Shown here: positions 1,148 to 64,000 of the stretch, one piece after another
Layout: every line of letters starts with the position of its first letter
How positions within the stretch are numbered: the stretch's first letter is position 1
Assembly (NCBI GenBank): GCA_041665885.1
Contig: JBAYHY010000002.1
Span: forward strand, 19,129 to 83,128
Length of the DNA: 64,000 nucleotides
DNA from: Minisyncoccota bacterium
GTDB taxonomy: Bacteria; Patescibacteriota; Minisyncoccia; Phycocordibacterales; UBA9973
Reading direction: 5' to 3'
The notes under the pieces: generated by a model
Told to the model about the DNA's origin: nothing
Seen by the model: the letters and a program-made list of their open reading frames with translations, nothing else
The model's database searches: none
Position numbers and translations under genes: made by a program

Positions 1148-3418
1148 TCATTTCTTTTTTAAACGAGCCCTTAGCACAATTATTTCGTCCCTTAGAATAG
1201 CAGCGGATTCGAAGTCGAGTTCTTTTACCGCTTTATTCATTTCTTTCTCTTTTATTTTAATTATTTTCTCATAAATAAAATTACCAATTTCTTCATCAGA
1301 CAAAATTGACTGACCTAAGCTTGTATTTGGAACTCTTTTTTTGTTTTTATTTTCTTTATTAAATTCTTTCGCATAAGCACGTTTAAAAACTTCCAGGTCG
1401 AGGTTAAGTTCTGCATTTACCGCTTTTCCATGCTCACTTTCCAACTCTTCGGTAATATCTTTTATCTTTTTCATAATCGTTTTCGGAGTAATGCCATGTT
1501 TTTTATTGTAAGCAAGCTGAATATTTCGGCGGCGAGTAGTTTCTTTGAGCGCATACTCCATTGCTCCCGTTATAATGTCAGCATAAAGAATTACCTTTCC
1601 TTCGCTGTTGCGCGCTGCACGCCCTATCGTTTGAATTAAGGAAGTTTCCGAACGTAAAAACCCCGCCTTATCGGCATCCAGAATACCAATGAGCGCCACT
1701 TCCGGCAGATCAAGTCCTTCACGTAAAAGATTAACGCCAACCAAAACATCAAACGCTCCTTTTCTAAATTGAGTAAGAATTTTTATTCGGTCTATCGTTT
1801 TTATATCGCTGTGCAAATATTCTGCTTTAATTTTTTTATCCTTAAGATAAACAGACAAGTCTTCCGCCATTTTTTTTGTTAATGTTGTAGCCAAAACTCT
1901 AAAACCTTTTTTAATCGTTTTTTCTGTCTCTTCAATAAAGTCCGCTATCTGTCCTTTGTAATTTCCTTTTTCACTAACAGGTCGAACTATTGTCTCTGGA
2001 TCCACAAGCCCAGTCGGGCGGATAATTTGTTCCACAACTTGTTCACTCTGGCTGCGTTCTTGTTCACTCGGCGTGGCGCTAGTGTAAATTACCGGACCGA
2101 TACGCTTTTGAAATTCTTCATATTTAAGCGGTCGATTATCTTTAGCCGAAGGCAAGCGAAAACCATATTCTACAAGAGTACTTTTACGAGAAGCATCGCC
2201 TGCATACATGCCTTGTAATTGTGGTAAGGTCACGTGCGATTCATCTATTATGGTGAGGAAGTCAGGCACATGCTCGTAGGAGTCTTCGCTACGTTCAGAA
2301 AGCAAATCTAGAGAATTTTCGAACGGTCTGGCCGGGGTGTGGGGCCCCGGAGAACCGAGGACCTGAGAAAATTCTACTGGATTTGCTTTGCTATGTGGAA
2401 AATACGAAAGTAGCGTTTCCGGTGGTTCACCTTCTTTTTTACCTGATAAATGTCTGGAATAATTTTCTATGCCGCTGCAATAACCAACTTCTTTAATCAT
2501 CGCGAGATCATAATTGGTTCTTCTTTTTATACGCTCGGCTTCTAGGAGTTTTCCCTCTTTCCCAAATTTTTTTAACTGCCCAGCCAATTCTTTTTTAATA
2601 TTAACTAGTGCTTTTTTAAGTTTCCCTTCTTCGGTAATAAAATGTTTGGCCGGAAAAATAAAGACATTTTTTTCTTCCGCTAAAATCTGCGAAGAAATAG
2701 GGTCAATTTTTGTTATTTTTGATATCGCATCACCCAAAAATTCTATTTGATACATAATCGTTTCCGAAATCGGCATAAATTCTACTCGCGCACCGACAGA
2801 ACGAAAAGTTCCGGGATTCAAGTCTGCATTTGTGCGCTCAAAATAAATTTCAATTAACTTTTTCATCAAAGTCATTCGATCCATCTTCGTGCCGATCTCA
2901 AGCTTGAGATTTACTTTTTCATACTCCTCCGGAGAACCCAAACCATAAATACAAGAAACAGAAGCAACAATTATCACATCTTTCCTTGTTAACAATGCTT
3001 GCGTGGTAGCGTGGCGCAAACGATCTATTTCTTTGTTTATTTGCGCATCTTTTTCAATATAAGTATCGGACACTGGCATATATGCTTCCGGTTGATAATA
3101 GTCATAATAAGAAACAAAATAATGGACAGCTGCCTCCGGAAAAAATTCGCGAAACTCTTGCGCGAGCTGAGCAGCCAGGGTTTTGTTGTGAGCTATCACA
3201 AGTGTGGGTTTGTTATACTGTGCGATAACGTTTGCCATAGTAAAAGTCTTACCGGTACCCGTCGCCCCCAGCAGGGTTTGCTTCCTCATTCCCCTATTAA
3301 GCCCGCCTAGAAGCCCTAAAATAGCTCCAGGCTGGTCTCCCGCTGGCTCAAACGGACTATTTAATTTAAATATATTTCCTTGATTTTTCGGCATATTTCT
3401 TATATTATCATAAGGCAA
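1148..3418 (-). CDS. uvrB: excinuclease ABC subunit B (UvrB), carrying a ~40-aa in-frame insertion
   Basis: Walker A LLGATGTGKTFTMANVIA, ENYSRHLSG and DESHVT helicase motifs, C-terminal UVR domain (ESAAILRDEIIVLRARL). 756 aa is longer than typical UvrB (~665 aa) because of the insertion at nt ~2275-2395. Confidence 0.95.
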   Translation of the reverse strand: MPYDNIRNMPKNQGNIFKLNSPFEPAGDQPGAILGLLGGLNRGMRKQTLLGATGTGKTFTMANVIAQYNKPTLVIAHNKTLAAQLAQEFREFFPEAAVHYFVSYYDYYQPEAYMPVSDTYIEKDAQINKEIDRLRHATTQALLTRKDVIIVASVSCIYGLGSPEEYEKVNLKLEIGTKMDRMTLMKKLIEIYFERTNADLNPGTFRSVGARVEFMPISETIMYQIEFLGDAISKITKIDPISSQILAEEKNVFIFPAKHFITEEGKLKKALVNIKKELAGQLKKFGKEGKLLEAERIKRRTNYDLAMIKEVGYCSGIENYSRHLSGKKEGEPPETLLSYFPHSKANPVEFSQVLGSPGPHTPARPFENSLDLLSERSEDSYEHVPDFLTIIDESHVTLPQLQGMYAGDASRKSTLVEYGFRLPSAKDNRPLKYEEFQKRIGPVIYTSATPSEQERSQSEQVVEQIIRPTGLVDPETIVRPVSEKGNYKGQIADFIEETEKTIKKGFRVLATTLTKKMAEDLSVYLKDKKIKAEYLHSDIKTIDRIKILTQFRKGAFDVLVGVNLLREGLDLPEVALIGILDADKAGFLRSETSLIQTIGRAARNSEGKVILYADIITGAMEYALKETTRRRNIQLAYNKKHGITPKTIMKKIKDITEELESEHGKAVNAELNLDLEVFKRAYAKEFNKENKNKKRVPNTSLGQSILSDEEIGNFIYEKIIKIKEKEMNKAVKELDFESAAILRDEIIVLRARLKKK
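2275..2395. repeat. imperfect palindromic element inserted in frame in uvrB; encodes ..SKANPVEFSQVLGSPGPHTPARPFENSLDLLSERSEDSYEHVP..
   Basis: Outer inverted repeats agcaaatctagagaattttc / gagaaaattctactggatttgct flank a GC-rich core ggccggggtgtggggccccgg. At this position E. coli UvrB has only ~4 residues (PADG). Confidence 0.6.
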
Positions 3419-4688: not shown

Positions 4689-7145
4689 TCACTTAACTTC
4701 CATAAAATTATCCCCAGACCCATAGTGCACCTCAAGTGGAATTTCTGTTTTGTAATGTAAATATGATCTCTCGAGCACACCTTCCATCGCTTTTTCTATT
4801 ATTTTTGTTGCTTGTGCCGATACCCCTTCTTCTATTTCATAAACTAGCTCGTCGTGTATTTGAAGCACTAGGTGAACTTTTTCCAACAGTGCCGCCTTTT
4901 TTAAATCTTCCTCTGCATACCTTATGGCAAGCTTGATAATATCCGCCGTAGCCGTACCTTGGACTGGCGCATTCATCGCTGTCCGCTCAGCCATATTTTT
5001 CAAAAATGGAATTCTGGATTTTATGTTTGGAAAATATCTGCGCCTGCCAAACATAGTCTCCGTATAATAATTTTTAGAAGCATCCACTTTTACTTTCTCT
5101 AGATAATCCCGCACCCCAGAAAACTGATTAAAATAATTATCATAAAACTTTTGTGCCTCCTCTCGGGTGCCTCCGAGATTTTTTCGAAGAGCTGAAACAC
5201 CCATACCATATATGATACCAAAATTTATTACTTTTGCTTTCCGTCTCATTTCTCTATCCACCGCATCTATCGGAACACCAAAAACAAAAGACGCTACTCC
5301 GGCGTGAATATCTTTTTTGTCTTTAAATATTTGAGTCATTTTCTTGTCCGCGGAAAGAATCGCGACGACCCGAAGCTCAATCTGGCTATAATCAAAAGCA
5401 ACAAGTTTAGAGCCCCCGGCGGCGACAAAGCCACCCCGAATCTTTTTTCCTAGCTCTGTTTTTACGGGTAAATTTTGTAAGTTTGGATCTTGAGAAGAAA
5501 ATCTTCCTGTTGTGGTATTGTTTTGTAAAAACTTGGCGTGTAGCCGCCCGTCTTCTGCAACCATTTTAGGAATTACATCGATGTAAGTTGAAAGCAATTT
5601 TTGTAGTTCTCTATAAGCTAAAATTTCTTTTATAATCGGATTATCTTCTTCCAGTTCTTCTAAAATGGAAACCTTGGTGGAGAAAGATCCACTGGCCTTT
5701 TTCTTTTTTCCGGAGACTATTCCCATTTTCTCAAAAAGCACTTCGCCCAGTTGTTTTGGTGAATTAATGTTAAATTCTATCCCCGCAATTTTATATATTT
5801 TTTTGGTTAAGTCATCCAACTCTGAGTGATATTCATTTGATAATTTTTCAAAATATTTCTTATCTATTAAAATCCCAAAATCCTCCATCTTTTTAACAAT
5901 TGGAATAATCGGGCGCTCTATCTCCTCATATACATTATATAAGCTTGCCCCGCCCTGGCGTGGGTTTTGCTCATTTAGCTTCTCAAAAATATATTTATAG
6001 GCGTCCTCAAAAGATTTTGTTTTAGCAAAAAGTAAAATATCTTCCAGCTGCGGATTTGAAATATCGGAATTAATCAACCAAAGAGCAATACTGGCTTCTT
6101 GTAATTTTTGAGAAGAAATCTGAGAAAGCAAAGTTTTCTCGGGTCCTCGGAACTCTCCGTCCCCTACCCCAGCCAGACCAGCTCTAAAACTTTCTTTCTC
6201 AAATTTCTCTCCGTCTCCGTTGCCTAAAAAACTTTTTAACCGCGCGAATAAACTTCTAAATTCAAAATTAGTAAAAACTCCTTCTATTTTTTCTGGCTCC
6301 ACGCTCTCCCAGAATGTTTTTGTTGGTAAAACAAAATCTATCGGGGCATCGGTACGAATAGTCGCGAGTGTTTTAGAAAACAACGCCTCTTCTTCGTTAT
6401 TTTTAAGTAATTCAACCATCCTCGGGCTAATCCCGATTTTTGTGAAAGCGTTTTCATCTTTTTTAATTTTCTTATATATTTCTTCTACCGTTCCAAAACT
6501 TGAAATTAAAATTTCAGCAGTTTTTTCCCCAATACCTTTAATGCCGATAATATTGTCTGATGGATCACCGCGAAGTCCTTTGTAGTCCGGCAAAAACTTG
6601 GGCTTAAAATGAAAACGATTTATAACGGCGTCTTCATCATACAAAATGGTGTCATTAATCCCTTTCTTTAAGGTATACACTTGCACCTTTTTATCATCCA
6701 CGAGTTGCATGGTATCCATGTCTCCCGAGGCAATAATAATTTTTATGTTTTTGTCTTTTTTGTGTTTTTCTACTATTGTCCCCAAAATATCATCAGCCTC
6801 AAAACCAGGGGCATCATAAATAGGAATATTAAAACAAGTAAAAATTTGGCGCGACTCTTTGAGCTGCATCACCAAAGCATCGTCTGCTTTTGCTCTCCCT
6901 GCTTTGTATCCGTCATATGCTTCATGCCTGAACGTTTTTTGAGGTAGATCATAACAAGCGACAATATAGTCCGGCTTAAGCTCAGTAATTATTTTCATGA
7001 GCATGCTGGCAAGTCCATACAGAGCCCCCGTTGGTTCACCCTTAGAAGATAAAAATTCGGGCAGAGCGTGATACGCCCGGTGAATAATGGCGTGAGCGTC
7101 GAGTAATATTAGTTTTTTGCTTTTCCCTTCGTTTGGTTTAGGCAT
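4689..7145 (-). CDS. polA: DNA polymerase I (5'-3' exonuclease domain plus polymerase domain)
   Basis: N-terminal LILLDAHAIIHRAYHAL (5'-3' exo). Polymerase motifs RRKAKVINFGIIYGMG and QIHDELVYE. Confidence 0.95.
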   Translation of the reverse strand: MPKPNEGKSKKLILLDAHAIIHRAYHALPEFLSSKGEPTGALYGLASMLMKIITELKPDYIVACYDLPQKTFRHEAYDGYKAGRAKADDALVMQLKESRQIFTCFNIPIYDAPGFEADDILGTIVEKHKKDKNIKIIIASGDMDTMQLVDDKKVQVYTLKKGINDTILYDEDAVINRFHFKPKFLPDYKGLRGDPSDNIIGIKGIGEKTAEILISSFGTVEEIYKKIKKDENAFTKIGISPRMVELLKNNEEEALFSKTLATIRTDAPIDFVLPTKTFWESVEPEKIEGVFTNFEFRSLFARLKSFLGNGDGEKFEKESFRAGLAGVGDGEFRGPEKTLLSQISSQKLQEASIALWLINSDISNPQLEDILLFAKTKSFEDAYKYIFEKLNEQNPRQGGASLYNVYEEIERPIIPIVKKMEDFGILIDKKYFEKLSNEYHSELDDLTKKIYKIAGIEFNINSPKQLGEVLFEKMGIVSGKKKKASGSFSTKVSILEELEEDNPIIKEILAYRELQKLLSTYIDVIPKMVAEDGRLHAKFLQNNTTTGRFSSQDPNLQNLPVKTELGKKIRGGFVAAGGSKLVAFDYSQIELRVVAILSADKKMTQIFKDKKDIHAGVASFVFGVPIDAVDREMRRKAKVINFGIIYGMGVSALRKNLGGTREEAQKFYDNYFNQFSGVRDYLEKVKVDASKNYYTETMFGRRRYFPNIKSRIPFLKNMAERTAMNAPVQGTATADIIKLAIRYAEEDLKKAALLEKVHLVLQIHDELVYEIEEGVSAQATKIIEKAMEGVLERSYLHYKTEIPLEVHYGSGDNFMEVK

Positions 7146-34321: not shown

Positions 34322-35407
34322 ATGAATAAATCTTATTTATTTTTATTTATTTTTTTTATTTTTCCCTTTTTTGCGCAAGGAATTTTTGCCACAGTCGCCT
34401 TTTCAGCTGTTCCAGAAGCAGCTAATTGCCCCATTCTTTCTACCTTGAGAGTGGGCTCCGTCGGAGAGCAGGTAAAATGTCTTCAAAAAATCGTTGGAAC
34501 AAGCCCGGACGGTTATTTTGGTCCATTGACCAAGGTGGCCGTTCTTTCGTGGCAATTAAGCCACAATTTAGTGGCAGACGGGGTGGTTGGTCCTCTAACT
34601 CGAACAATTCTAGTGAGCTTTACTGTTGCTAGTGACTTTCCGGAAGGGTGTACTCAAACCACGACATATAGCCCAACGACCGGAAAAAAGTGCAATGGCA
34701 GTGAAACAGCAGAAAATAGCGCTGGTCTTTCCCCTGCCTCTGTTTCATCAACAAATCCTGTCGTTATCCCGGGTACAAAAGTGGCTGTCGGTAGTAAGAT
34801 GCCGGAATCCTTAAAAGATCCCCAGCAAAACCTAGAAAATTACATTGCCTCAGTAAAAAGCGATCTTGTTAAAAGAGGCGAAACGCTGAGTACAATATTG
34901 CTTATTGAAGAAAGTATAAGAAACAGTGTTGCAGAAAACCCTAATGCAACCCAACAATTTTTTGATGCTCAAAGAGAAATTTATAATAAGACGGCTTCAG
35001 GGAAAATTTCTAAATTGTCCGCATTAGTTTTTTTTGATAAAGTTTTTTCTTTTTTCAGTAAAACTTTTTCTACAAACAAAGCTCAGGCGGCATCACAATT
35101 ACCGTTCGGGGGATTCGTTGGTGTATTCCCCGATTGTACTTGCACAGGTGAACCACCGGCGGTGGTCCAACTTTTTGTTACATTGCCAAGTGCCCCCACA
35201 GGAATTTCTAATATAAAGTTGAATTATGCGACGGGGACCCAGGCATTTTTGAATTTTAATTTACCGCTGGAGGGAGTTGCGGTGCTTGGTTTTTATAATC
35301 CTGCAGCCAATGTGGCATGTACAGTAACCATAGGGACGGGATGCGGCATAATACCCGCGGAAGGTCAGATTATTCCCACAGTGGGGTCTTCTCTTTCTCC
35401 GTCATAA
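34322..35407 (+). CDS. secreted protein with an N-terminal peptidoglycan-binding domain
   Basis: Signal peptide. ..GSVGEQVKCLQKIVGTSPDGYFGPLTKVAVLSWQLSHNLVADGVVGPLT matches PG_binding_1. Confidence 0.5.
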   Translation: MNKSYLFLFIFFIFPFFAQGIFATVAFSAVPEAANCPILSTLRVGSVGEQVKCLQKIVGTSPDGYFGPLTKVAVLSWQLSHNLVADGVVGPLTRTILVSFTVASDFPEGCTQTTTYSPTTGKKCNGSETAENSAGLSPASVSSTNPVVIPGTKVAVGSKMPESLKDPQQNLENYIASVKSDLVKRGETLSTILLIEESIRNSVAENPNATQQFFDAQREIYNKTASGKISKLSALVFFDKVFSFFSKTFSTNKAQAASQLPFGGFVGVFPDCTCTGEPPAVVQLFVTLPSAPTGISNIKLNYATGTQAFLNFNLPLEGVAVLGFYNPAANVACTVTIGTGCGIIPAEGQIIPTVGSSLSPS

Positions 35408-36320
35408 TTGTCAGCCACTCTTTTAAGGAAACATCTTCTGCTCGAGCGTTTTCTTTTATTCCAGCGCTAGTTAAAATTTTCAAAGAATTGTTTCCAAACA
35501 GCGAGCGCAGGTTTCCATTAAGTTTTTTTCTTTTATGGGCGAAACCTGCTTTTACAATTTCCCAAAATTTTTCTTCATTAATATTATTTTCTATAAAAGT
35601 TTTACGGGAAATATTGTTTATGGCAATTACCGCTGAGTCCACCTTCGGGGCTGGAGAAAAATAACGAGCCGGCACTTTCATAATTAATTTTGGCTCTCCG
35701 TAGGCCTTAACAGAAATAGAAAGAATGCTTTCCTTCCCACCTGCCCCGCCATGGCGCGGGTTGCGCGCGATTATTCTTTTTGCCACTTCATGCTGGACCA
35801 TGAGCACCATGGACGCGGGTTGGTTTTTTCCCGTCAAAAATTTTTTCAAAATTGCGCCGGTAATGTTGTAGGGGATGTTGGCTATGATTTTGTAAGAGCG
35901 CAAGATATTATTTTGCTCAACACGCATATTCGCCTGCTGGCGAATTGCTATGCTCGCGCCGTCGCGCTGCGCAATGTTTTGCAAAGCAATATCTTGCTTT
36001 AGATTAAAGTTTAAAATGTCTTCGTTTACTAGTATTAATTTTTTTTCAGCAATTTCTTTTGCAAATTTTTCTCCTAAAAATTCAAAAAGTTCGCGGTCCT
36101 TTTCCACGGCGATGACCAGTCCGGATTTTTCCAAAAGTTTTTTTGTTAATACGCCTTTTCCGGGCCCAATTTCTAAAATTACATCGTCTGGCCTGATGTT
36201 TCCCGCCTCTATTATTTTTTTCAAAGCAATTTCTGACTTTAAAAAATTTTGCCCTAAAGCCTTTTTGGCTCGGACGAAAACAGTTTTATTTTTAAGCCCT
36301 GGTGATTTTTTTGTTTTCAT
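35370..36320 (-). CDS. rsmA: 16S rRNA (adenine1518/1519-N6)-dimethyltransferase RsmA/KsgA
   Basis: ..LGQNFL... and the SAM motif VILEIGPGKGVLTKKL. Confidence 0.9.
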   Translation of the reverse strand: MKTKKSPGLKNKTVFVRAKKALGQNFLKSEIALKKIIEAGNIRPDDVILEIGPGKGVLTKKLLEKSGLVIAVEKDRELFEFLGEKFAKEIAEKKLILVNEDILNFNLKQDIALQNIAQRDGASIAIRQQANMRVEQNNILRSYKIIANIPYNITGAILKKFLTGKNQPASMVLMVQHEVAKRIIARNPRHGGAGGKESILSISVKAYGEPKLIMKVPARYFSPAPKVDSAVIAINNISRKTFIENNINEEKFWEIVKAGFAHKRKKLNGNLRSLFGNNSLKILTSAGIKENARAEDVSLKEWLTIMTEKEKTPLWE

Positions 36321-36352: not shown

Positions 36353-38593
36353 TTATAAATAAATTGTTTTTATTCCACTACTTTCCCCCTCTTTTTCTAG
36401 CAAATCAGCTGGAATATCGGAAATAAATTCAGACGGTGCGTTTATTTGGCGCGAGCCGAAAATGGTGCGGAAGTTCGCGAAGGATAAAAATAATTTTTCT
36501 TTTGCTCGAGTGAGGGCTACATAGAAAAGTCGTCTTTCTTCCTCTCTGTCTTCTCCTGTCTGTCCTTCGTTTTGCCTTTCGTGCGGGAAAAGCCCGTCTT
36601 CCATTCCGGTGACGAAAACATATTTAAATTCAAGGCCTTTTGACGCGTGCACGGTCATCAGCTTTATGGCACTGACTTCTTTTTTTTGTTTTTCTTCAGT
36701 AATCATTAATGAATCTTGGTCCGAGGCGAGCGAAGCATCTTCCAGAAGTTTTTCTATTCCGACACCACCTTCTAGGCTGTCGTATTTAATGGCCAGGGTT
36801 GCTAATTCCTTTATGTTTTCCAGTCTTTCCATGTCTTCTTCTCCCCCATTACTGAGTTCCTGTTCTATCCCTGATTTTTTGACCACAAATTTTATCGTGT
36901 CACTGGCTTTTGTTTTTTGAATTTTTTCTTTTATTTCTTCCAGGGTTTGATAAAAATTATCGACTTTTATTCTCACCTTTATCGGCAACTCTTCCTTTTT
37001 CCCGGTAAAAATTTTTGCCAAGGTGACTTTGCCGATGCCACGGGTTGGGAAATTGATAATTCTTTTTATGTCTGACAAGCTGTCTGGATTTAGGGCAGCC
37101 CGCAAATAGGCCAAGGTGTCTTTTATTTCTTTTCGTTCAAAAAATTTAACCCCGAGGACCTGATATGGAATATTGTAACGAAGCATCGCTTCCTCCAACG
37201 CGCGCGATTGAAAATTTGCGCGATAAAGAACGGCGACTTCGGGGAAAACATTCTCGGACTCACCACGAAAATTTTCTGCTGAAAATTTTCTCTGTCCGTC
37301 GCCGTCGCTCCTCCCAAGGGTTCGCTCGAGAGTGTTTTCCCCTTCGCCGGCGTAGTTTTTTCCAATTTTTTGTTCCCGAGGGTCCCACTTTGAGCCCGAA
37401 GCGCCCAAAGAAGGGCGCAGGGACAAAAAATTGGAAGAGACGAAGCCATCTCCATCAATAATTTCTAAAATTTTTGTCGCGACGTAGTCCGCTTCGTCGT
37501 TTTCGTCAAGCGCCTCATATAATCCTATTTTTTCACCCTCTACGTTGTCGGTAAATAAGTTTTTATCAGGCCTGTATACGTTTTTTTTGATTATTTCATT
37601 GGCTGCTTCCAGAATATTTTTGGTGGAGCGGTAATTTTGTTCCAATAAAATTATTTTTGCGTTCGGATAATCTTTTTCAAAATTTAAAATATTTTTTAGA
37701 TTTGCTCCGCGCCAGGAATAGATGTTCTGGTCCGCGTCTCCGACGACACAAATATTTTTATTATTTTCCGAAAGCAATTTTGTCATTAAATATTGCACCT
37801 CGTTCGTGTCTTGATACTCGTCCACATGGATATATTCCCATTTTTCTTGGTAAATTTTTCTGACTTCCTTGTTTTCCTTTAATAATTTTGTTGCTTTCAA
37901 AAGCAAGTCATCAAAATCAAGAGAATTTTCTTTCAGTTTTTGTTTTTCGTATAAGTTCCAAACCCGAGCGATTATTTGCCCCAGGGTATCTACCGCTCTT
38001 TCTGCGTAATCTTCCAAATGGGTGAATTTTCCTTTTTCTCTTGAAATTATATTTCTTATTTTTTTCGGATCATATTGTTTTGGGTCTATCCCGAGCTCCT
38101 TCAGAATATTTTTTATCAAGGTGACAGAATCCCCTTCATCCAAAATGGTGAAATATTTAGTTAAGCCCAATAATCGAGCATTTTCTTTTATGATATAAAC
38201 ACCCAGAGAATGGAAAGTGGAAACAAAGGGCTCTTCTGGATTTTTCGCGTAGCTTTTTTCAATTTTTTGATCCCGAGGGTCCCACTCGGTATCCCGAGAA
38301 GGGCGCAGGGACGAAAAATTGGAAGAAGCGAAGCTTTCTTTTATTGCAAAACTTATTCTCTCCCGCATTTCTTTGGCGGCCTTGTTGGTAAAGGTTACCG
38401 CCAGGATTTTGTCAGGAGAAACTCCCTCTTTTATCAGATTTACGATTCGGTGAGTGATGGTTTTTGTTTTACCCGCCCCTGCCCCCGCCACGACAAGAAG
38501 AGGGCCCTCTCGGTGCAGAGCAGCTTCTTTCTGTTCTTTATTTAGCCCTCTTAAGTGTTCTTTGTTTGTTTCCACCTTCTTAATATAGCACAA
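36353..38593 (-). CDS. UvrD/PcrA/Rep-family ATP-dependent DNA helicase containing three in-frame palindromic-element insertions
   Basis: Walker A AGAGAGKTKTITHRI, the ..VSTFHSLG.. motif, QDTNEVQY, and conserved C-terminal helicase motifs. Extra segments are present relative to PcrA: ~25 aa and ~60 aa. Confidence 0.9.
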   Translation of the reverse strand: MCYIKKVETNKEHLRGLNKEQKEAALHREGPLLVVAGAGAGKTKTITHRIVNLIKEGVSPDKILAVTFTNKAAKEMRERISFAIKESFASSNFSSLRPSRDTEWDPRDQKIEKSYAKNPEEPFVSTFHSLGVYIIKENARLLGLTKYFTILDEGDSVTLIKNILKELGIDPKQYDPKKIRNIISREKGKFTHLEDYAERAVDTLGQIIARVWNLYEKQKLKENSLDFDDLLLKATKLLKENKEVRKIYQEKWEYIHVDEYQDTNEVQYLMTKLLSENNKNICVVGDADQNIYSWRGANLKNILNFEKDYPNAKIILLEQNYRSTKNILEAANEIIKKNVYRPDKNLFTDNVEGEKIGLYEALDENDEADYVATKILEIIDGDGFVSSNFLSLRPSLGASGSKWDPREQKIGKNYAGEGENTLERTLGRSDGDGQRKFSAENFRGESENVFPEVAVLYRANFQSRALEEAMLRYNIPYQVLGVKFFERKEIKDTLAYLRAALNPDSLSDIKRIINFPTRGIGKVTLAKIFTGKKEELPIKVRIKVDNFYQTLEEIKEKIQKTKASDTIKFVVKKSGIEQELSNGGEEDMERLENIKELATLAIKYDSLEGGVGIEKLLEDASLASDQDSLMITEEKQKKEVSAIKLMTVHASKGLEFKYVFVTGMEDGLFPHERQNEGQTGEDREEERRLFYVALTRAKEKLFLSFANFRTIFGSRQINAPSEFISDIPADLLEKEGESSGIKTIYL
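37249..37340. repeat. Type 1 palindromic element (copy B) in frame in the helicase; encodes ..TLERTLGRSDGDGQRKFSAENFRGESENVFPE..
   Basis: ttctcggactcaccacgaaaattttctgctgaaaattttctctgtccgtcgccgtcgctcctcccaagggttcgctcgagag, with TIR ggggaaaacattctcg / cgagagtgttttcccc. Further copies at 48772, 52685 and 62547. Confidence 0.7.
37355..37445. repeat. Type 2 palindromic element (copy a) in frame in the helicase, adjacent to the Type 1 copy; encodes ..SSNFLSLRPSLGASGSKWDPREQKIGKNYAG..
   Basis: tccaattttttgttcccgagggtccc...gggcgcagggacaaaaaattggaaga; long inverted arms. Confidence 0.65.
38250..38335. repeat. Type 2 palindromic element (copy b) in frame near the helicase N-terminus; encodes ..SSNFSSLRPSRDTEWDPRDQKIEKSYA..
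   Basis: ttcaattttttgatcccgagggtcccactcggtatcccgagaagggcgcagggacgaaaaattggaag, ~85% identical to copy a in the same reading frame. PcrA has ~10 residues at this position. Confidence 0.65.
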
Positions 38594-41029: not shown

Positions 41030-41458
41030 TCACAAAATAATATCACTGACCACTTTTACTCTCGCCCTTTTTTCCTTTTGGCATAAATAAACAACCAAGA
41101 GATCTACTTGCCATTCTTTTTCGTCTGGCACCTTCTCGGACAACAAATATGTTTGAATTGTCCGAGACAACCTTTTTAGTTTCCAGGGGTGCATGTTGTC
41201 CTCGGGCCTGTGTTGGTATCTTTCGTCCGAATCATTATAAGACTTGGGGATAAAAGTATTCAATGTTTCTCGTGAAACGCTTTTTACTTCAACGAAATAT
41301 AGTTTGCCCTTCTTTTCCGCTATGATATCTATCTCTCCCCACTTCTTCGTATAGTTGCGGTCCAAAATAGAGAAATTATGTTTCACGAGAAACCTTGTGG
41401 CAATATTTTCCCCGATTTCTCCTATTTTTTGTGTTTCTGATGTAAATTTTTTCGGCAT
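41030..41458 (-). CDS. YraN/UPF0102-family (Holliday-junction-resolvase-like) endonuclease
   Basis: ..GEIGENIATRFLVKHNFSILDRNYTKKWGEIDIIAEKKGKLYFVEVKS.. fits the UPF0102 PD-(D/E)xK pattern. Confidence 0.6.
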   Translation of the reverse strand: MPKKFTSETQKIGEIGENIATRFLVKHNFSILDRNYTKKWGEIDIIAEKKGKLYFVEVKSVSRETLNTFIPKSYNDSDERYQHRPEDNMHPWKLKRLSRTIQTYLLSEKVPDEKEWQVDLLVVYLCQKEKRARVKVVSDIIL

Positions 41459-41535
41459 CCCGGTACTAAAATTTTAAGTTCTTAGTAATAATCGTTATAT
41501 ATTTTAATCAAAAATTTAGTACGGGACAAGTTTTA
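41459..41535 (-). promoter_or_regulatory. conserved inverted-repeat leader (copy 2 of 3) abutting the yraN-like start codon
   Basis: In gene orientation: ..ACTTGTCCCGTACTAAATTTTTGATT..(35 nt)..CTTAAAATTTTAGTACCGGG-ATG. Confidence 0.55.
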
Positions 41536-41566
41536 GTTAGTTTCACCTGAAACATGTTTCACGTGA
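41536..41566. promoter_or_regulatory. tandem palindromic sites GTTTCACCTGAAAC / GTTTCACGTGAAAC just upstream of the yraN-like leader
   Basis: Two adjacent 14-bp palindromes, the second a perfect one. Confidence 0.35.
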
Positions 41567-41687
41567 AACAAATCATCAAAATTATGTGTCTTTTATTAAA
41601 ATATCCTTATTTTACAACATATTTTAACTAAAAAGGGCACTCAAAGACAGCTTTTTGGTGTGTCCTTTATAAACATTACCCACATAG

Positions 41688-48718: not shown

Positions 48719-48771
48719 AATTTACCGCATTATCAATTTTTGCTCAACAACAGATTAAAAACAAATGTTTA

Positions 48772-48837
48772 TTCACCACGAAAATTTTCTGCTAAAAATT
48801 TTCTCTGTCCGTCGCCGTCGCTCCTCCCAAGGGTTCA
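48772..48837. repeat. Type 1 palindromic element, truncated intergenic copy (A), between the divergent TMEM175-like and murI genes
   Basis: ttcaccacgaaaattttctgctaaaaattttctctgtccgtcgccgtcgctcctcccaagggttca. Confidence 0.65.
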
Positions 48838-48876
48838 TAAATATTCGTTTTTAATCTGCCATGTTATATTGTAAGT

Positions 48877-52411: not shown

Positions 52412-52675
52412 ATGTTAGCAAAAAAGAAAAAACAAACAGTGATTAAGAAAAATCAGATTCACGAGACGGATACCGGTTCTCCGGAAGTGCAAGTGGCTGT
52501 TTTGTCTATGCAAATTGATGCTTTGGCTAAACATTTAAAGAAACACAAGAAGGATAACCATTCTCGCCGAGGACTAATCAAGATGGTGGCTGATAGACGT
52601 ACGCATTTGAAATATCTAGAACGCAAAGATAAGTCTCGCTACACTTCTCTAATGAAGAAAATGGATTTAGCCTAG
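52412..52675 (+). CDS. rpsO: 30S ribosomal protein S15 (start refined to MLAKKKK)
   Basis: ..GSPEVQVAVLSMQIDALAKHLKKHKKDNHSRRGLIKMVADRRTHLKYL matches S15. Confidence 0.9.
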   Translation: MLAKKKKQTVIKKNQIHETDTGSPEVQVAVLSMQIDALAKHLKKHKKDNHSRRGLIKMVADRRTHLKYLERKDKSRYTSLMKKMDLA

Positions 52676-52684
52676 TGTTTTCGT

Positions 52685-52804
52685 AAAATATTCTCGGACT
52701 CACCACAAAAATCTTCTGCTGAAGATTTTTTCTGTCCGGCGCCGTTCAGAAAATGTACTCCCAGCACATTTCTGCTACCAAGGGTTCGCTCGAGAATATT
52801 TTAC
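52685..52804. repeat. Type 1 palindromic element, full-length intergenic copy (E), with 15-bp TIRs and an extra internal hairpin, between rpsO and the NYN gene
   Basis: TIRs gtaaaatattctcgg ... cgagaatattttac. Core is homologous to the copies at 37249, 48772 and 62547. Confidence 0.7.
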
Positions 52805-52863
52805 TTCAACCGTGCTATAATCAACTAGGTTGAATTTTTAATATTTTTATAAGTAATTTTTAT

Positions 52864-53373: not shown

Positions 53374-53538
53374 TTCCTTACAAATTTTTGCTTTTTTTGA
53401 ATAAAATGCTAGGATAAACCTAGTATTTTATTAGTTAATCAGTTCGCGTTCAGACACATAGTAATGTTCTTCTTAAAGAACAATACTGCAGTTTGGACAC
53501 GAACCTATGTAAATTTACAAAATATCAACTTTCTTTCG

Positions 53539-53599
53539 GCACGGATTTTTTGAAGCTTAAAAAATCCTGAAATTCTCGGCTCGCCAGCCTCGAAACCCC
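53539..53599 (+). repeat. Type 3 repeat (copy 1): A/T hairpin ggattttttgaagcttaaaaaatcc plus ttctcggctcgccagcctcgaaacccc, ~40 nt upstream of pnp
   Basis: About 90% identical to 63578..63637, which sits upstream of comM. Confidence 0.6.
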
Positions 53600-53636
53600 T
53601 TCAGAAAGTTATATTTTATAAATTTTATAAAAATTT

Positions 53637-61905: not shown

Positions 61906-63072
61906 TTATTTTAACTTTTCTATTTTCTCCCACGGGAGGTTTGGTTTACCGAAGTGGCCGTAGGTGGCGGTTTGAAAAAAGATTGGCTTGCGAAGACCGA
62001 GGCGTTCAATAATAGAGAGTGGTTTGAAGTCAAAATTTTTGCGAACCACTTCCGACAAGTCTTCACCCTTCTCGTTTATCGCCTCTATCATGAGGGGCTC
62101 TGCCATGCCGATAGCGTAAGCGACGGAGACGAGCGCTTCCTTGCCGTAACCATTCGCCACTAAATTCTTCGCGACGAAGCGCGCCATGTAAGCGCCGGAG
62201 CGGTCCACCTTCGTGGCGTCTTTCCCTGAGAAACATCCTCCGCCGTGTGGAATGATTCCTCCGTAAGTGTCCACCATTATTTTGCGTCCGGTTAATCCTG
62301 TGTCGGCCTCGAAGCCTCCTTGGATAAATTTACCTGTTGGGTTCACTAAAATTTTCACGTTTCGCTGTTCCTCGGGTGTGAGTAACGGGTAAATTATTTT
62401 TTCCGTGATTTCTTTTCTAATTTCTTCCAGTGAAACTTCTGGTGTGTGTTGAGCAGATACGAGGACGGTATTCAGTTTGCCATTCGTATAAGTGACTTGA
62501 GTTTTGCCGTCGGGGCGTAACCAAGGAATGTTGGCGGGGAAGATGTTCCCGGACTCACCACGAGAATTTTCTGCTGAAAATTCTCTCTGTCCGTCGTCGC
62601 CACTCCTTCCAAGGGTTCGCTCGGTAACATCTTTCCCGCCACGGCGCGCCTCCTCCAGCCGTTTCGCCAGTTTGTGCACGAGGACGACACCCTTCGGTAG
62701 AAATTCCGGCGTTTCGTCCGTCGCGAAGCCATACATGATGCCTTGGTCGCCGGCGCCACCATTGTCCACTCCCTGGGCTATTTCCGAGGACTGGGTGACG
62801 AGGTGGGCAGAAATTTCAAGTTTATTTTCATACCCGATCTTTTTATAAACATCGCGAGCAATTTTTACATAATCAACTTCTCCTCCCGAGGTCACCTCTC
62901 CGCCTATTGTGAGCCGGCCATGACCACCGAAAACCTCTACCGCCACGCGGCTTTTGGGGTCTTGCGCTAAATAAGCATCTAAAATAGCATCGGAAACTTG
63001 GTCGCAAATCTTATCCGGATGTCCGGAGGTTACGCTCTCTACTGTGTAGTTGTCATTATGCTTGTAAAACAT
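61906..63072 (-). CDS. metK: S-adenosylmethionine synthetase with an in-frame Type 1 element insertion
   Basis: ..[24 protein letters not shown].., GGGAFSGKD, ..[12 protein letters not shown]... Insertion peptide ..[31 protein letters not shown]... Confidence 0.9.
   Translation of the reverse strand: [388 protein letters not shown]
62547..62634. repeat. Type 1 palindromic element (copy D) in frame in metK
   Basis: gttcccggactcaccacgagaattttctgctgaaaattctctctgtccgtcgtcgccactccttccaagggttcgctcgg, with matching TIRs gggaagatgttcccg / cggtaacatctttccc. Confidence 0.7.
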
Positions 63073-63118
63073 AAGTATGAGTATAGCATTGATTAGTTTT
63101 TTTCATAATGCTATGATT

Positions 63119-63195
63119 TAGGCACTTGTCCCGTACTAAATTTTTGATTACGGGACATAAAGATAAATATTATTAGTTAAAATTTTAGTACCGGG
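63119..63195 (+). promoter_or_regulatory. conserved inverted-repeat leader (copy 3 of 3) abutting the dksA-like start codon
   Basis: CACTTGTCCCGTACTAAATTTTTGATT..(30 nt)..TTAAAATTTTAGTACCGGG-ATG. Confidence 0.55.
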
Positions 63196-63552
63196 ATGTT
63201 GGATAAAAAGAAAATTAAAGAAAAACTGGAAAAAGAGAGGGATGAATTGCTCGAAGAGATGAAGGATATGGGCAAGTTTGATATTGAGACGGGCGAATGG
63301 GAGACCACGCCGGAAGAATTGGATTTTCCCGATACTGATGACAACGACAAGGCGGACCGCTTTGAAGATTTTGAAGCGAGGAGCTCGATGATGAAAACTC
63401 TGGAGCCGAGACTGAAAAATATTTTGAAAGCATTGAAAGGGATAAACAGAGAATCTTTCGGTAAGTGTGAAATTTGCAAAAAAGATATTGAGATGAGTCG
63501 CCTGGAAGCAAATCCGGCAGCCCGCACCTGTAAGAAACACATAGAAAGTTAA
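63196..63552 (+). CDS. DksA/TraR-family C4 zinc-finger protein
   Basis: Coiled-coil N-terminus and C-terminal ..CEICKKDIEMSRLEANPAARTCKKH. Confidence 0.65.
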   Translation: MLDKKKIKEKLEKERDELLEEMKDMGKFDIETGEWETTPEELDFPDTDDNDKADRFEDFEARSSMMKTLEPRLKNILKALKGINRESFGKCEICKKDIEMSRLEANPAARTCKKHIES

Positions 63553-63577
63553 ATTTTTTAGTATATTTTTCTAGGGT

Positions 63578-63637
63578 ACGGATTTTTTGAAGCTTTAAAA
63601 ATCCTGAAGTTCTCGGCTCGACAGCCTCGAAACCCCC
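63578..63637 (+). repeat. Type 3 repeat (copy 2), ~40 nt upstream of the comM/yifB-like gene
   Basis: acggattttttgaagctttaaaaatcctgaagttctcggctcgacagcctcgaaacccc. Confidence 0.6.
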
Positions 63638-63679
63638 TAAAAAACATACTAAAAAATTGTTAGTAATTTTTAATTATTT

Positions 63680-64000
63680 ATGAGTTTTGCCAAAGTCTAT
63701 TCTGCACAAGTTAATCTACTTAGTGGGGTGATCGTGACGATTGAGGTGGACCTTTCCAGGGGGCTCCATTCTTTTAATATTGTCGGTCTTCCGGACAAGG
63801 CGGTGGATGAATCCAAAGACAGAGTAAGCGGAGCGATAAAAAATTCCGGTTTTCAATCTCCAAAAGCAAAAAATCAGAAAATAATTGTTTCTCTTTCGCC
63901 AGCTGACCTAAAAAAAGAGGGGCCGTTTTTTGATTTAGCCATTGCGCTCGCGTACATGCTCGCGGCGGGGGACATCAAATTCAATTCCGAGAAAAAAATA
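63680..64000 (+). CDS. comM: YifB/ComM-family Mg-chelatase-like ATPase (N-terminal part; continues beyond the window)
   Basis: MSFAKVYSAQVNLLSGVIVTIEVDLSRGLHSFNIVGLPDKAVDESKDRVSGAIKNSGF matches the ComM N-terminal Lon-protease-like domain. Confidence 0.75.
   Translation, partial: MSFAKVYSAQVNLLSGVIVTIEVDLSRGLHSFNIVGLPDKAVDESKDRVSGAIKNSGFQSPKAKNQKIIVSLSPADLKKEGPFFDLAIALAYMLAAGDIKFNSEKKI

Follow-up and report, generated by a model that had tools for sequence, protein, structure and literature searches.

Short palindromic elements are inserted in frame into conserved housekeeping genes along a 64,000-nucleotide (nt) stretch of the genome of a Minisyncoccota bacterium (contig JBAYHY010000002.1; this whole stretch is referred to below as the window), and we consider it likely that they are non-autonomous, structure-dependent repeats that resemble the Rickettsia palindromic elements (RPEs) and are translated as tolerated loops of their host proteins. 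The elements, each of about 90 to 120 nt, rich in GC, and predicted to fold into a long hairpin or a three-way junction, would be non-coding by origin and part of a set of at least nine families (T1 to T9) in genomes of Paceibacteria, which belong to the candidate phyla radiation (CPR). Three of them lie in the uvrD gene for a UvrD/PcrA helicase, and others were located in metK, in uvrB and between genes. The principal host open reading frames (ORFs) and elements are as follows.

36353..38593, minus strand: uvrD/pcrA helicase ORF, 746 codons, open throughout, host to three elements
37232..37350, plus strand: T1 in uvrD loop B, with a 64-nt core (37260-37323) and complementary arms; minus-strand reading EGENTLERTLGRSDGDGQRKFSAENFRGESENVFPEV
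37349..37447, plus strand: T2 copy a, immediately next to T1 in uvrD loop B, with 28-nt arms; read as GFVSSNFLSLRPSLGASGSKWDPREQKIGKNY
38247..38334, plus strand: T2 copy b in uvrD loop A, an inverted repeat whose only PcrA counterpart is residues 78-85; read as SFASSNFSSLRPSRDTEWDPRDQKIEKSYAKN
61906..63072, minus strand: metK (S-adenosylmethionine synthetase) ORF (Pfam S-AdoMet_synt N/M/C; PDB 3iml, E = 8e-100), host to one T1
62532..62641, plus strand: T1 in metK, arms 90% complementary; 33-amino-acid (aa) insert DVTERTLGRSGDDGQREFSAENSRGESGNIFPA at nt 62533-62631
48751..48858, plus strand: intergenic T1 between divergent genes, with its own 27-nt arms (48751-48777 and 48832-48858)
52685..52805, plus strand: intergenic T1, 11 nt 3' of an rpsO-like ORF, with the P3 mini-hairpin replaced by a 24-nt longer hairpin
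1148..3418, minus strand: uvrB ORF (Pfam UvrB domains; PDB 2fdc, E = 7e-230), host to T3
2264..2392, minus strand: T3 (uvrB-type) palindrome of 129 nt; 43-aa insert HSKANPVEFSQVLGSPGPHTPARPFENSLDLLSERSEDSYEHVP immediately before the DESH box

Inserts in the window and their turnover among relatives

The product of the uvrD ORF carries the Pfam domains UvrD-helicase and UvrD_C and matches PcrA (PDB 1pjr) with an E value of 1.2e-154; in the HMMER alignment two stretches of it, residues 83-119 and 381-446, are unaligned and lie opposite PcrA residues 78-85 and 345-348, respectively. About 95 extra residues are accommodated at these two loops, which are short in solved PcrA (6 and 2 residues). A sequence-only reading of this DNA had described an ORF that stays open through one T1 and two T2 inserts, adding about 85 residues where PcrA has short loops; the ORF is indeed uninterrupted, the copies lie at, or no more than about 20 nt from, the places assigned to them, and the size of the addition needed slight upward revision. 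The two T2 copies (37350-37446 and 38247-38334) match each other with a BLAST E value of 1.5e-17; copy a has an enlarged apical hairpin, a variant also found in L068, and copy b is 91% identical to a copy in L058. In a near-identical sister assembly (P0131, P0134), uvrD is split into ORFs of 344 and 357 aa by a frameshift in an A run at ..EIIKK|N.., upstream of the elements, which is probably a sequencing error.

The four plus-strand copies of T1 form a direct-repeat family (37240-37328, 48753-48841, 52680-52768, and 62535-62623) with 67 to 89% gap-free identity, bearing out the proposal that homologues of the uvrD copy occur in frame in metK and at two intergenic sites. The metK copy is 89% identical to that of uvrD, and the 33 residues that it contributes (148-180) are a clean insertion without counterpart in solved MetK (3iml). 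The core of the 48.7-kb copy (48773-48836) is 98% identical to the uvrD core over 64 nt; its arms are unrelated in sequence to those of the uvrD copy, yet are complementary to each other. The 52.7-kb copy (52685-52805) begins 11 nt past the end of a small S15 (rpsO)-like ORF (52415-52676) and may double as the terminator of that gene. The palindrome that extends uvrB was correctly held to be a separate one: its 43 residues (UvrB 343-385) fall between residues 331 and 332 of solved UvrB (2fdc) and have no counterpart there, and its core (2316-2371) is 82 to 89% identical to copies in L031 (two), L056, and L057. The insert sites in PcrA, MetK, and UvrB all map to loops of the solved structures, as had been expected.

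A scan for local inverted repeats revealed two further coding elements:

6114..6208, minus strand: polA element, in frame in ORF 4689..7145 (minus strand; Pfam DNA_pol_A), with 23-nt arms; peptide EKESFRAGLAGVGDGEFRGPEKTLLSQ
35900..35997, minus strand: ksgA/rsmA element of family T8, an inverted repeat in frame in ORF 35370..36320 (minus strand; Pfam RrnaAD); peptide KQDIALQNIAQRDGASIAIRQQANMRVEQNNIL

The polA peptide resembles the 'SSGLAG..GEPRTREN' family of UvrD orthologues, and the T8 peptide family is also present in the UvrD orthologues P0006, P0032, and P0076. Inverted-repeat scans agreed with the self-complementarity ascribed to the copies first described. As single strands, the seven coding elements have predicted folding energies of -31 to -50 kcal/mol, with z scores of -3.0 to -6.6 relative to dinucleotide shuffles; individual values are -48.8 kcal/mol (z -4.6, a three-way junction) for the uvrD T1, -45.6 (z -5.9) for T2 copy a, -47.9 (z -6.6) for T3 in uvrB, -43.3 (z -4.0) for the polA element, and -47.1 (z -5.2) for T8 in ksgA. 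The GC content of the elements is about 51%, against 39% for the window.

A comparison of 119 UvrD orthologues (67 to 100% identity, 629 to 758 aa) revealed the extent to which these loops are filled and emptied. Loop A is short in 69 of the 119, holds a single classified element in 47 (T3 in 20, T1 in 13, T4 in 10, T2 in 3, and T5 in 1), and contains an unclassified insert in 3. Loop B is short in only 19; its contents are T1 (35, one in the other orientation), T2 (20), T3 (15), T4 (13), T5 (8), T6 (7), T7 (7), T9 (4), and T8 (3), and two classified elements stand in tandem in 24 proteins. The inserts of UvrD orthologues therefore comprise at least nine families, and the T3 peptide family FSQVLGSPGPYPGQTIRKS alone occurs in 35 orthologue loops. 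Decayed copies were few at the protein level (for example, P0007 and P0038). Most MetK orthologues are of about 354 aa with a short loop, and about 20, of 383 to 399 aa, have an insert at the same site, T1 in at least eight and T4 in at least four. The KsgA site that holds T8 in the window holds T1 at the same position in L057, and the UvrB of L036 is without the T3 of the window and carries T1 in another loop. The extra segments are insertions subject to turnover, and a small number of loops are hot spots shared by the families.

The insert proved rare among 50%-identity cluster representatives: a 70-aa T2-plus-T1 peptide gave four matches in a word-indexed protein database, and nine weak matches, mostly to short ORFs, came from an exhaustive HMMER search with the T1 peptide of 37 aa. 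The census was therefore made at the DNA level, by an exact-pattern scan for 21 specified bases of the T1 core in one genome per GTDB species. Among these species representatives there were 68 strict matches in 65 loci, all 65 from Nomurabacteria/Paceibacterota-type CPR metagenome-assembled genomes (MAGs); the T2 pattern was found in 40 metagenome contigs, and neither pattern had a match in viral contigs. Two outcomes had been named in advance as fatal to the sequence-only reading, namely, uniform, ordinary loops in all relatives and an absence of further copies; the short loops of many orthologues and the recurrence of both patterns elsewhere mean that neither was encountered.

Of 72 T1 copies, 57 fall within long ORFs, 13 between genes or in short ORFs, and 1 in a doubtful ORF, and the last is cut by a contig end, so that about 80% are intragenic. 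After masking of the element, the host ORFs clustered as UvrD (22 copies), Fmt (11), TsaD (6), KsgA (5), MetK (4), and Dus (2), with single copies in PGM, RecG, UvrB, UvrC, Tgt, MurC, RNase H, and a DUF4430 protein; identities were assigned by Pfam, except for the UvrB of L036, which was recognized by its similarity to the UvrB of the window. The elements thus occupy housekeeping genes of no fewer than 14 families. In the window, T1 has a single orientation in every copy and a single frame in the coding copies, as first noted; this part of the description does not extend to other genomes, where T1 and T2 both occur in both orientations.

Conserved core and covarying arms

An interior of about 64 nt is near-invariant between T1 copies of different genomes, whereas the flanking 15 to 25 nt vary from copy to copy, the two arms remaining complementary within each; this layout is the reverse of that of a MITE (a transposable element of the miniature inverted-repeat type). 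Analysis of 69 copies with RNAalifold gave a 17-bp closing stem (P1), a hairpin (P2; GAAAAUUUUC) with a 4-nt loop, and a mini-hairpin (P3), which is a long hairpin in four copies, among them the 52.7-kb copy; L002, L010, and L026 have this long variant as well. Compensatory changes were present in all 17 pairs of P1. Double-change cells numbered 447, against 141 ± 12 in column shuffles (none of 500 shuffles reached 447), and 90.3% of cells were paired, compared with 41 to 59% when partners were slid by one to three columns. P2 and P3 have compensated variants too, examples in P2 being GAGAATTTTC/GAAAATTCTC in metK and GAAAATCTTC/GAAGATTTTT in the 52.7-kb copy. T2 forms a rod in which the internal loops are conserved, the apical hairpin varies and covaries, and the outer arms are variable; 20 of its 35 pairs show compensatory changes. 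T8 of ksgA shares with T1 a GCGACGGCG mini-hairpin and a CAGCAG-capped hairpin, and the two may belong to one superfamily; at some sites their outer arms are also similar (CAARATATT/AATATYTTG).

Such an arrangement invites the explanation that the elements are functional structured nucleic acids (RNA modules in mRNAs, small RNAs, or single-stranded DNA [ssDNA] signals) that selection has conserved in situ, their location in genes being tolerated or put to use, and that are domesticated and not mainly selfish. Conserved strands at a three-way junction, a closing helix that varies and covaries, and peripheral hairpins able to expand make up the architecture of riboswitches and small ribozymes, and conservation of the core is high: in 19 genomes with T1 at UvrD loop B, core positions outside the search pattern are 87% identical, whereas the third positions of the adjoining 50 uvrD codons, which are saturated, are 51% identical and the first and second positions 91%. 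As a check on ascertainment, an nhmmer profile of the T1 core was run over 320 kb of loci that had been picked through T2 or through empty sites; it returned four distinct T1 copies, all near-consensus, and one weak fragment. The T1 cores are accordingly either young, through frequent turnover or exchange, or constrained, and the data accommodate both. Mismatches in the T1 stem are also biased, with 49 G·U against 15 A·C on the strand that is mRNA sense for most copies, a suggestive count but one confounded by shared ancestry; in the seven sense-hosted copies, however, the asymmetry does not follow the mRNA strand (10 versus 4, counts that again are not phylogenetically independent). The same families lie in either orientation to transcription, within the coding sequence of 14 or more genes that are not related to one another, and also between genes, and not in a cis-regulatory position, many orthologues do without them, and different families replace one another at the same site. 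Rfam returned only five tRNAs over the whole window at gathering thresholds and only chance-level matches for 37150-38450 at E ≤ 10. We regard a conserved function of this kind as unlikely to be the main explanation.

Reading frame and encoded peptides

In the T1 core, four of six frames are free of stop codons, but the 57 genic copies use them very unequally: 50 are read in the complement frame TLGRSDGDGQRKFSAENFRG, 6 in the sense frame SPRKFSAENFLCPSPSLLPRV, and 1 in a third frame, and none of the 57 has a stop codon in its arms or core. In the intergenic copies of the window, by contrast, the frame used by coding copies is interrupted by stops within the arms. T2 behaves similarly: SSNFSSLRPSRSTEWDPRE is the frame of about 23 copies and FNFELPEGPTPVLRGRAQGRK that of 8. 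This skew and the lack of stops favor read-through by the ribosome over removal at the RNA level, and from them we infer that the inserts are translated. The palindromic P2 (37274-37297 in the window, and present in all T1 copies) encodes the octapeptide RKFSAENF on either strand, and the two orientations of T1 therefore give partly identical protein loops. In an AlphaFold model of UvrD the inserts are the lowest-confidence coil; the model is poor overall (mean predicted local distance difference test score [pLDDT] 60, predicted template modeling score [pTM] 0.37), and it is consistent with inserts that are unstructured, a use beyond which it should not be taken.

The same data bear on a second explanation, that the hairpin triggers excision of the insert from the mRNA and religation, a counterpart in bacteria to the 'SOS splicing' that acts on DNA transposons in animals (PMC12779559); the protein would then often be made without the insert, and pairing of the arms would be selected on that account. 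Arm pairing that is actively kept while arm sequence is free to vary would suit such a process, as would element lengths that preserve the reading frame; however, that 57 of 57 genic copies stay free of stops, with 50 confined to one frame out of the four that are open, is to be expected only of sequence that ribosomes translate, and the stops in the arms of intergenic copies point the same way. Excision of this type appears highly improbable. A third possibility, that we are dealing with ordinary protein loops particular to a lineage, with peptide modules that have a function, or with artifacts of assembly, is already effectively refuted. The peptides are indeed conserved (RKFSAENF in both orientations) and the inserts always lie in loops; yet one and the same 64-nt stretch of DNA, identical even at synonymous positions, recurs between genes and in genes that are unrelated, its two orientations encode peptides that differ beyond the palindromic octapeptide, close orthologues differ in presence and absence, and more than 100 independent assemblies contributed copies.

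Inteins, introns, CRISPR arrays, diversity-generating retroelements, and tandem repeats were rejected on size, layout, and frame constraint; with respect to inteins and self-splicing introns in particular, the inserts measure 30 to 43 aa (90 to 130 nt) and are under strong frame and stop constraints. The UvrD orthologue P0065 (1,073 aa) carries the Pfam intein splicing domain PF14890, and uvrD is thus an intein host in some lineages.

Possible movement, known parallels, and significance

If the elements are RPE-like repeats tolerated as loops, the following course of events may be envisaged. They would be mobile, now or recently, but non-autonomous, would probably be recognized or propagated as a folded single strand, and would be gained and lost at a limited set of permissive sites. 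In compact genomes with little intergenic space, most surviving copies would be those within housekeeping genes, at surface loops, and a copy would persist only if its length kept the frame and if it were read in the one stop-free, hydrophilic frame available to its orientation; the peptide so retained is probably disordered, and the host protein would simply carry it as an extra loop. The conserved core comprises junction strands and small hairpins, and the closing stem around it varies while its arms stay complementary, which selection, or conversion of one arm by the other, would maintain. Both T1 orientations are found at the same UvrD site, for which inversion between the arms would be the simplest account.

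Several observations weigh against this interpretation. The 90%-identity cluster to which the UvrD of the window belongs contains only sequences with identical inserts, and so offers no insertion polymorphism within a population. A near-invariant core with compensated arms, kept at one site across many species, fits purifying selection on a functional structure better. No clear target-site duplication was seen: the best direct repeats flanking the copies average 1.97 nt, against 1.65 ± 0.17 nt in shuffled pairs, and a few copies have repeats of 5 to 6 nt. No transposase or other candidate mobilizing gene was present among the neighbors of 11 intergenic T1 copies, the only places inspected, as no genome-wide search was made. 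Finally, translation of the inserts is deduced from the pattern of frame use and is not observed.

The neighbors of intergenic T1 copies are of the housekeeping kind and encode an exonuclease III-like protein, a Xer-type tyrosine recombinase, RpoB, S16, AlaRS, and S7. The gene for the Xer-type recombinase (Pfam Phage_integrase) adjoins an intergenic T1 in L004 (~6445), L008 (~2073), and L020 (~4900), and in L004 and L008 the element lies between this gene and the exonuclease III-like gene; the association is probably one of conserved synteny and not of a mobilizing partner. As a test for the replication-strand bias expected of IS200/IS605-like ssDNA elements, the GC skew flanking T1 carried little information: it is positive in 31 cases and negative in 41 and follows the local coding strand, and the orientation of T1 showed no relation to it.

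Comparison of empty (L106, L107) and filled (L030, L051, L052, L065) uvrD alleles gave some indication of how insertion may proceed, in a loop that is too variable for exact boundaries to be drawn. The empty loops of L106 and L107 read GAT GGT GGA GAA AAT GAT ATC, and the mRNA-5' arm of filled T1 (GGA CAA AAT ...) resembles this host sequence. In metK and fmt the T1 arms run into host-conserved codons, and in P0097 the net gain of 21 aa corresponds to the T1 core alone. Near-empty versions of UvrD loop B (P0026, P0027, P0064) read ..GEGNIFPG.. or ..KNKNILSE.., with ..GQNILSE.. also found; they look like deletions between the AATATT motifs of the two arms, an event that would be predicted to leave perfect short palindromes as footprints, for example, GGACAAAATATTTTGTCC. 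As leads, these findings point to repeated insertion and deletion at palindromic footprints, or else to conversion of one arm by the other. The GGA GAA AAT of empty loops matches the left arm of filled alleles, arms enter host-conserved codons in metK and fmt, and the net insertion equals the core alone in some alleles; all three would fit the conceivable, though on balance doubtful, reading that the elements form an undescribed class of structure-specific element in which an invariant core of about 60 nt (three-way junction or rod) is recognized instead of the termini and the outer arms are built from, or converted against, the flanking target. Were this so, it would imply a new insertion mechanism by which the target is copied in inverted form, or insertion into the loops of palindromic footprints that earlier elements had left, or, alternatively, a folded module of RNA or ssDNA that is of use to the host and is bound by an enzyme of its own.

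RPEs are themselves short palindromes of multiple families, inserted in frame into unrelated housekeeping genes of a reduced genome and encoding, family by family, a conserved peptide (Ogata et al. 2000, as summarized in PMC10969869). The elements described here share with RPE-1 to RPE-10 their organization into short palindrome families, a reduced, host-dependent bacterial genome, in-frame as well as intergenic copies, a conserved peptide per family in one frame, sites compatible with the protein fold, and the lack of a known transposase. They differ in host (Paceibacteria of the CPR, against Alphaproteobacteria), in length (about 90 to 130 nt, against about 100 to 150 nt), in having a conserved interior core with varying, covarying closing arms, in the concentration of many families, often in tandem, at two or three loops of one protein, and in the use of both orientations, each with its own frame. 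As multicopy short palindromes that lie in frame, and in a common frame, in unrelated genes and at loop sites, they function as elements of the RPE kind; the likeness is one of behavior, sequence homology to RPEs would not be expected in a different phylum, and we make no claim of common descent.

The sequence-only reading had called the elements MITE/RPE-like, and only the second half of that label is apt, in that they occur in frame in many unrelated housekeeping genes. Bacterial MITEs (QMITE1 and QMITE2 of Coxiella, PMC5896051; the Correia, ERIC, and Nezha elements, PMC10969869) are likewise small, non-autonomous, multicopy hairpins that can overlap ORFs and form in-frame fusions with them, but their definition calls for terminal inverted repeats that are conserved, for duplications of the target site, and for a cognate insertion sequence (IS); here, the terminal arms are unconserved, every pair of P1 being variable, the location is predominantly intragenic, and a related IS was not seen among the neighbors of the intergenic copies, the only places inspected. 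A classical MITE was accordingly rejected, on terminal repeats not conserved across copies; a target-site duplication did not stand out either. Repetitive extragenic palindromic (REP) sequences and their bacterial interspersed mosaic elements (BIMEs), the REPINs moved by the Y1 HUH transposase RAYT, and the palindromes of IS200/IS605 offer another parallel, as in these a folded single-stranded hairpin, not the termini, is thought to be recognized, and some T2 copies start with GCGTAG, which is reminiscent of the GTAG motif of REPs. REPs, however, are of 20 to 40 nt and extragenic, and membership of the REP/REPIN-RAYT group was rejected on size and intragenic location; no RAYT or TnpA gene was identified, in the absence of a genome-wide search for one.

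Two intergenic repeat families of the window lie apart from the coding elements, and both recur in other genomes among the T1 loci:

53538-53607 and 63552-63658 (core 63575-63644): intergenic repeat F4, the copies 90% identical to each other
16275-16368, 41456-41535, and 63123-63211 (the last inverted): intergenic hairpin repeat F3, CCCGTACTAAA...TTTAGTACGGG, with related copies in L005

The second F4 copy is flanked by 19-nt arms that are 95% complementary, a layout of variable arms and conserved core like that of T1 and T2. F4 is also present in L055 (4729-4798, 97%) and L052 (4277-4340, 94%), and Rfam gave no match beyond chance level for region 63050-63750 at E ≤ 10. F3 could be a terminator or an operator-like site. 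Short, near-perfect intergenic palindromes at 12237-12278 and 41537-41572 are likely to be intrinsic terminators that are unrelated to the element families.

Full-text searches of the literature on CPR, Patescibacteria, Parcubacteria, and Nomurabacteria found no description of palindromic in-frame repeats of this type, in keeping with the initial impression that they are unreported in CPR-type genomes. What is new here is the occurrence of RPE-like repeats in a very different lineage, with a conserved core, covarying arms, and hot spots shared by multiple families. The anatomy of core and arms provides defined motifs with which to seek the enzyme or RNA that recognizes them. On a practical level, the inserts inflate and misalign marker proteins used in CPR phylogenomics, the repeats are likely break points in MAG assembly, and patterns of presence and absence could mark strains or lineages. 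The rapid turnover at these few loops, which involves at least nine families, loops with anything from no classified element to two or more, and what look like footprints of deletion, is a concrete source of new loop sequence in conserved proteins. CPR genomes are among the smallest and most gene dense known. Dozens of copies inside essential genes for DNA repair, tRNA modification, and S-adenosylmethionine synthesis would amount to a second and independent instance of the Rickettsia paradigm, in an episymbiotic lineage that is not related to Rickettsia, which suggests that extreme compaction of a genome generally leads to this pattern.

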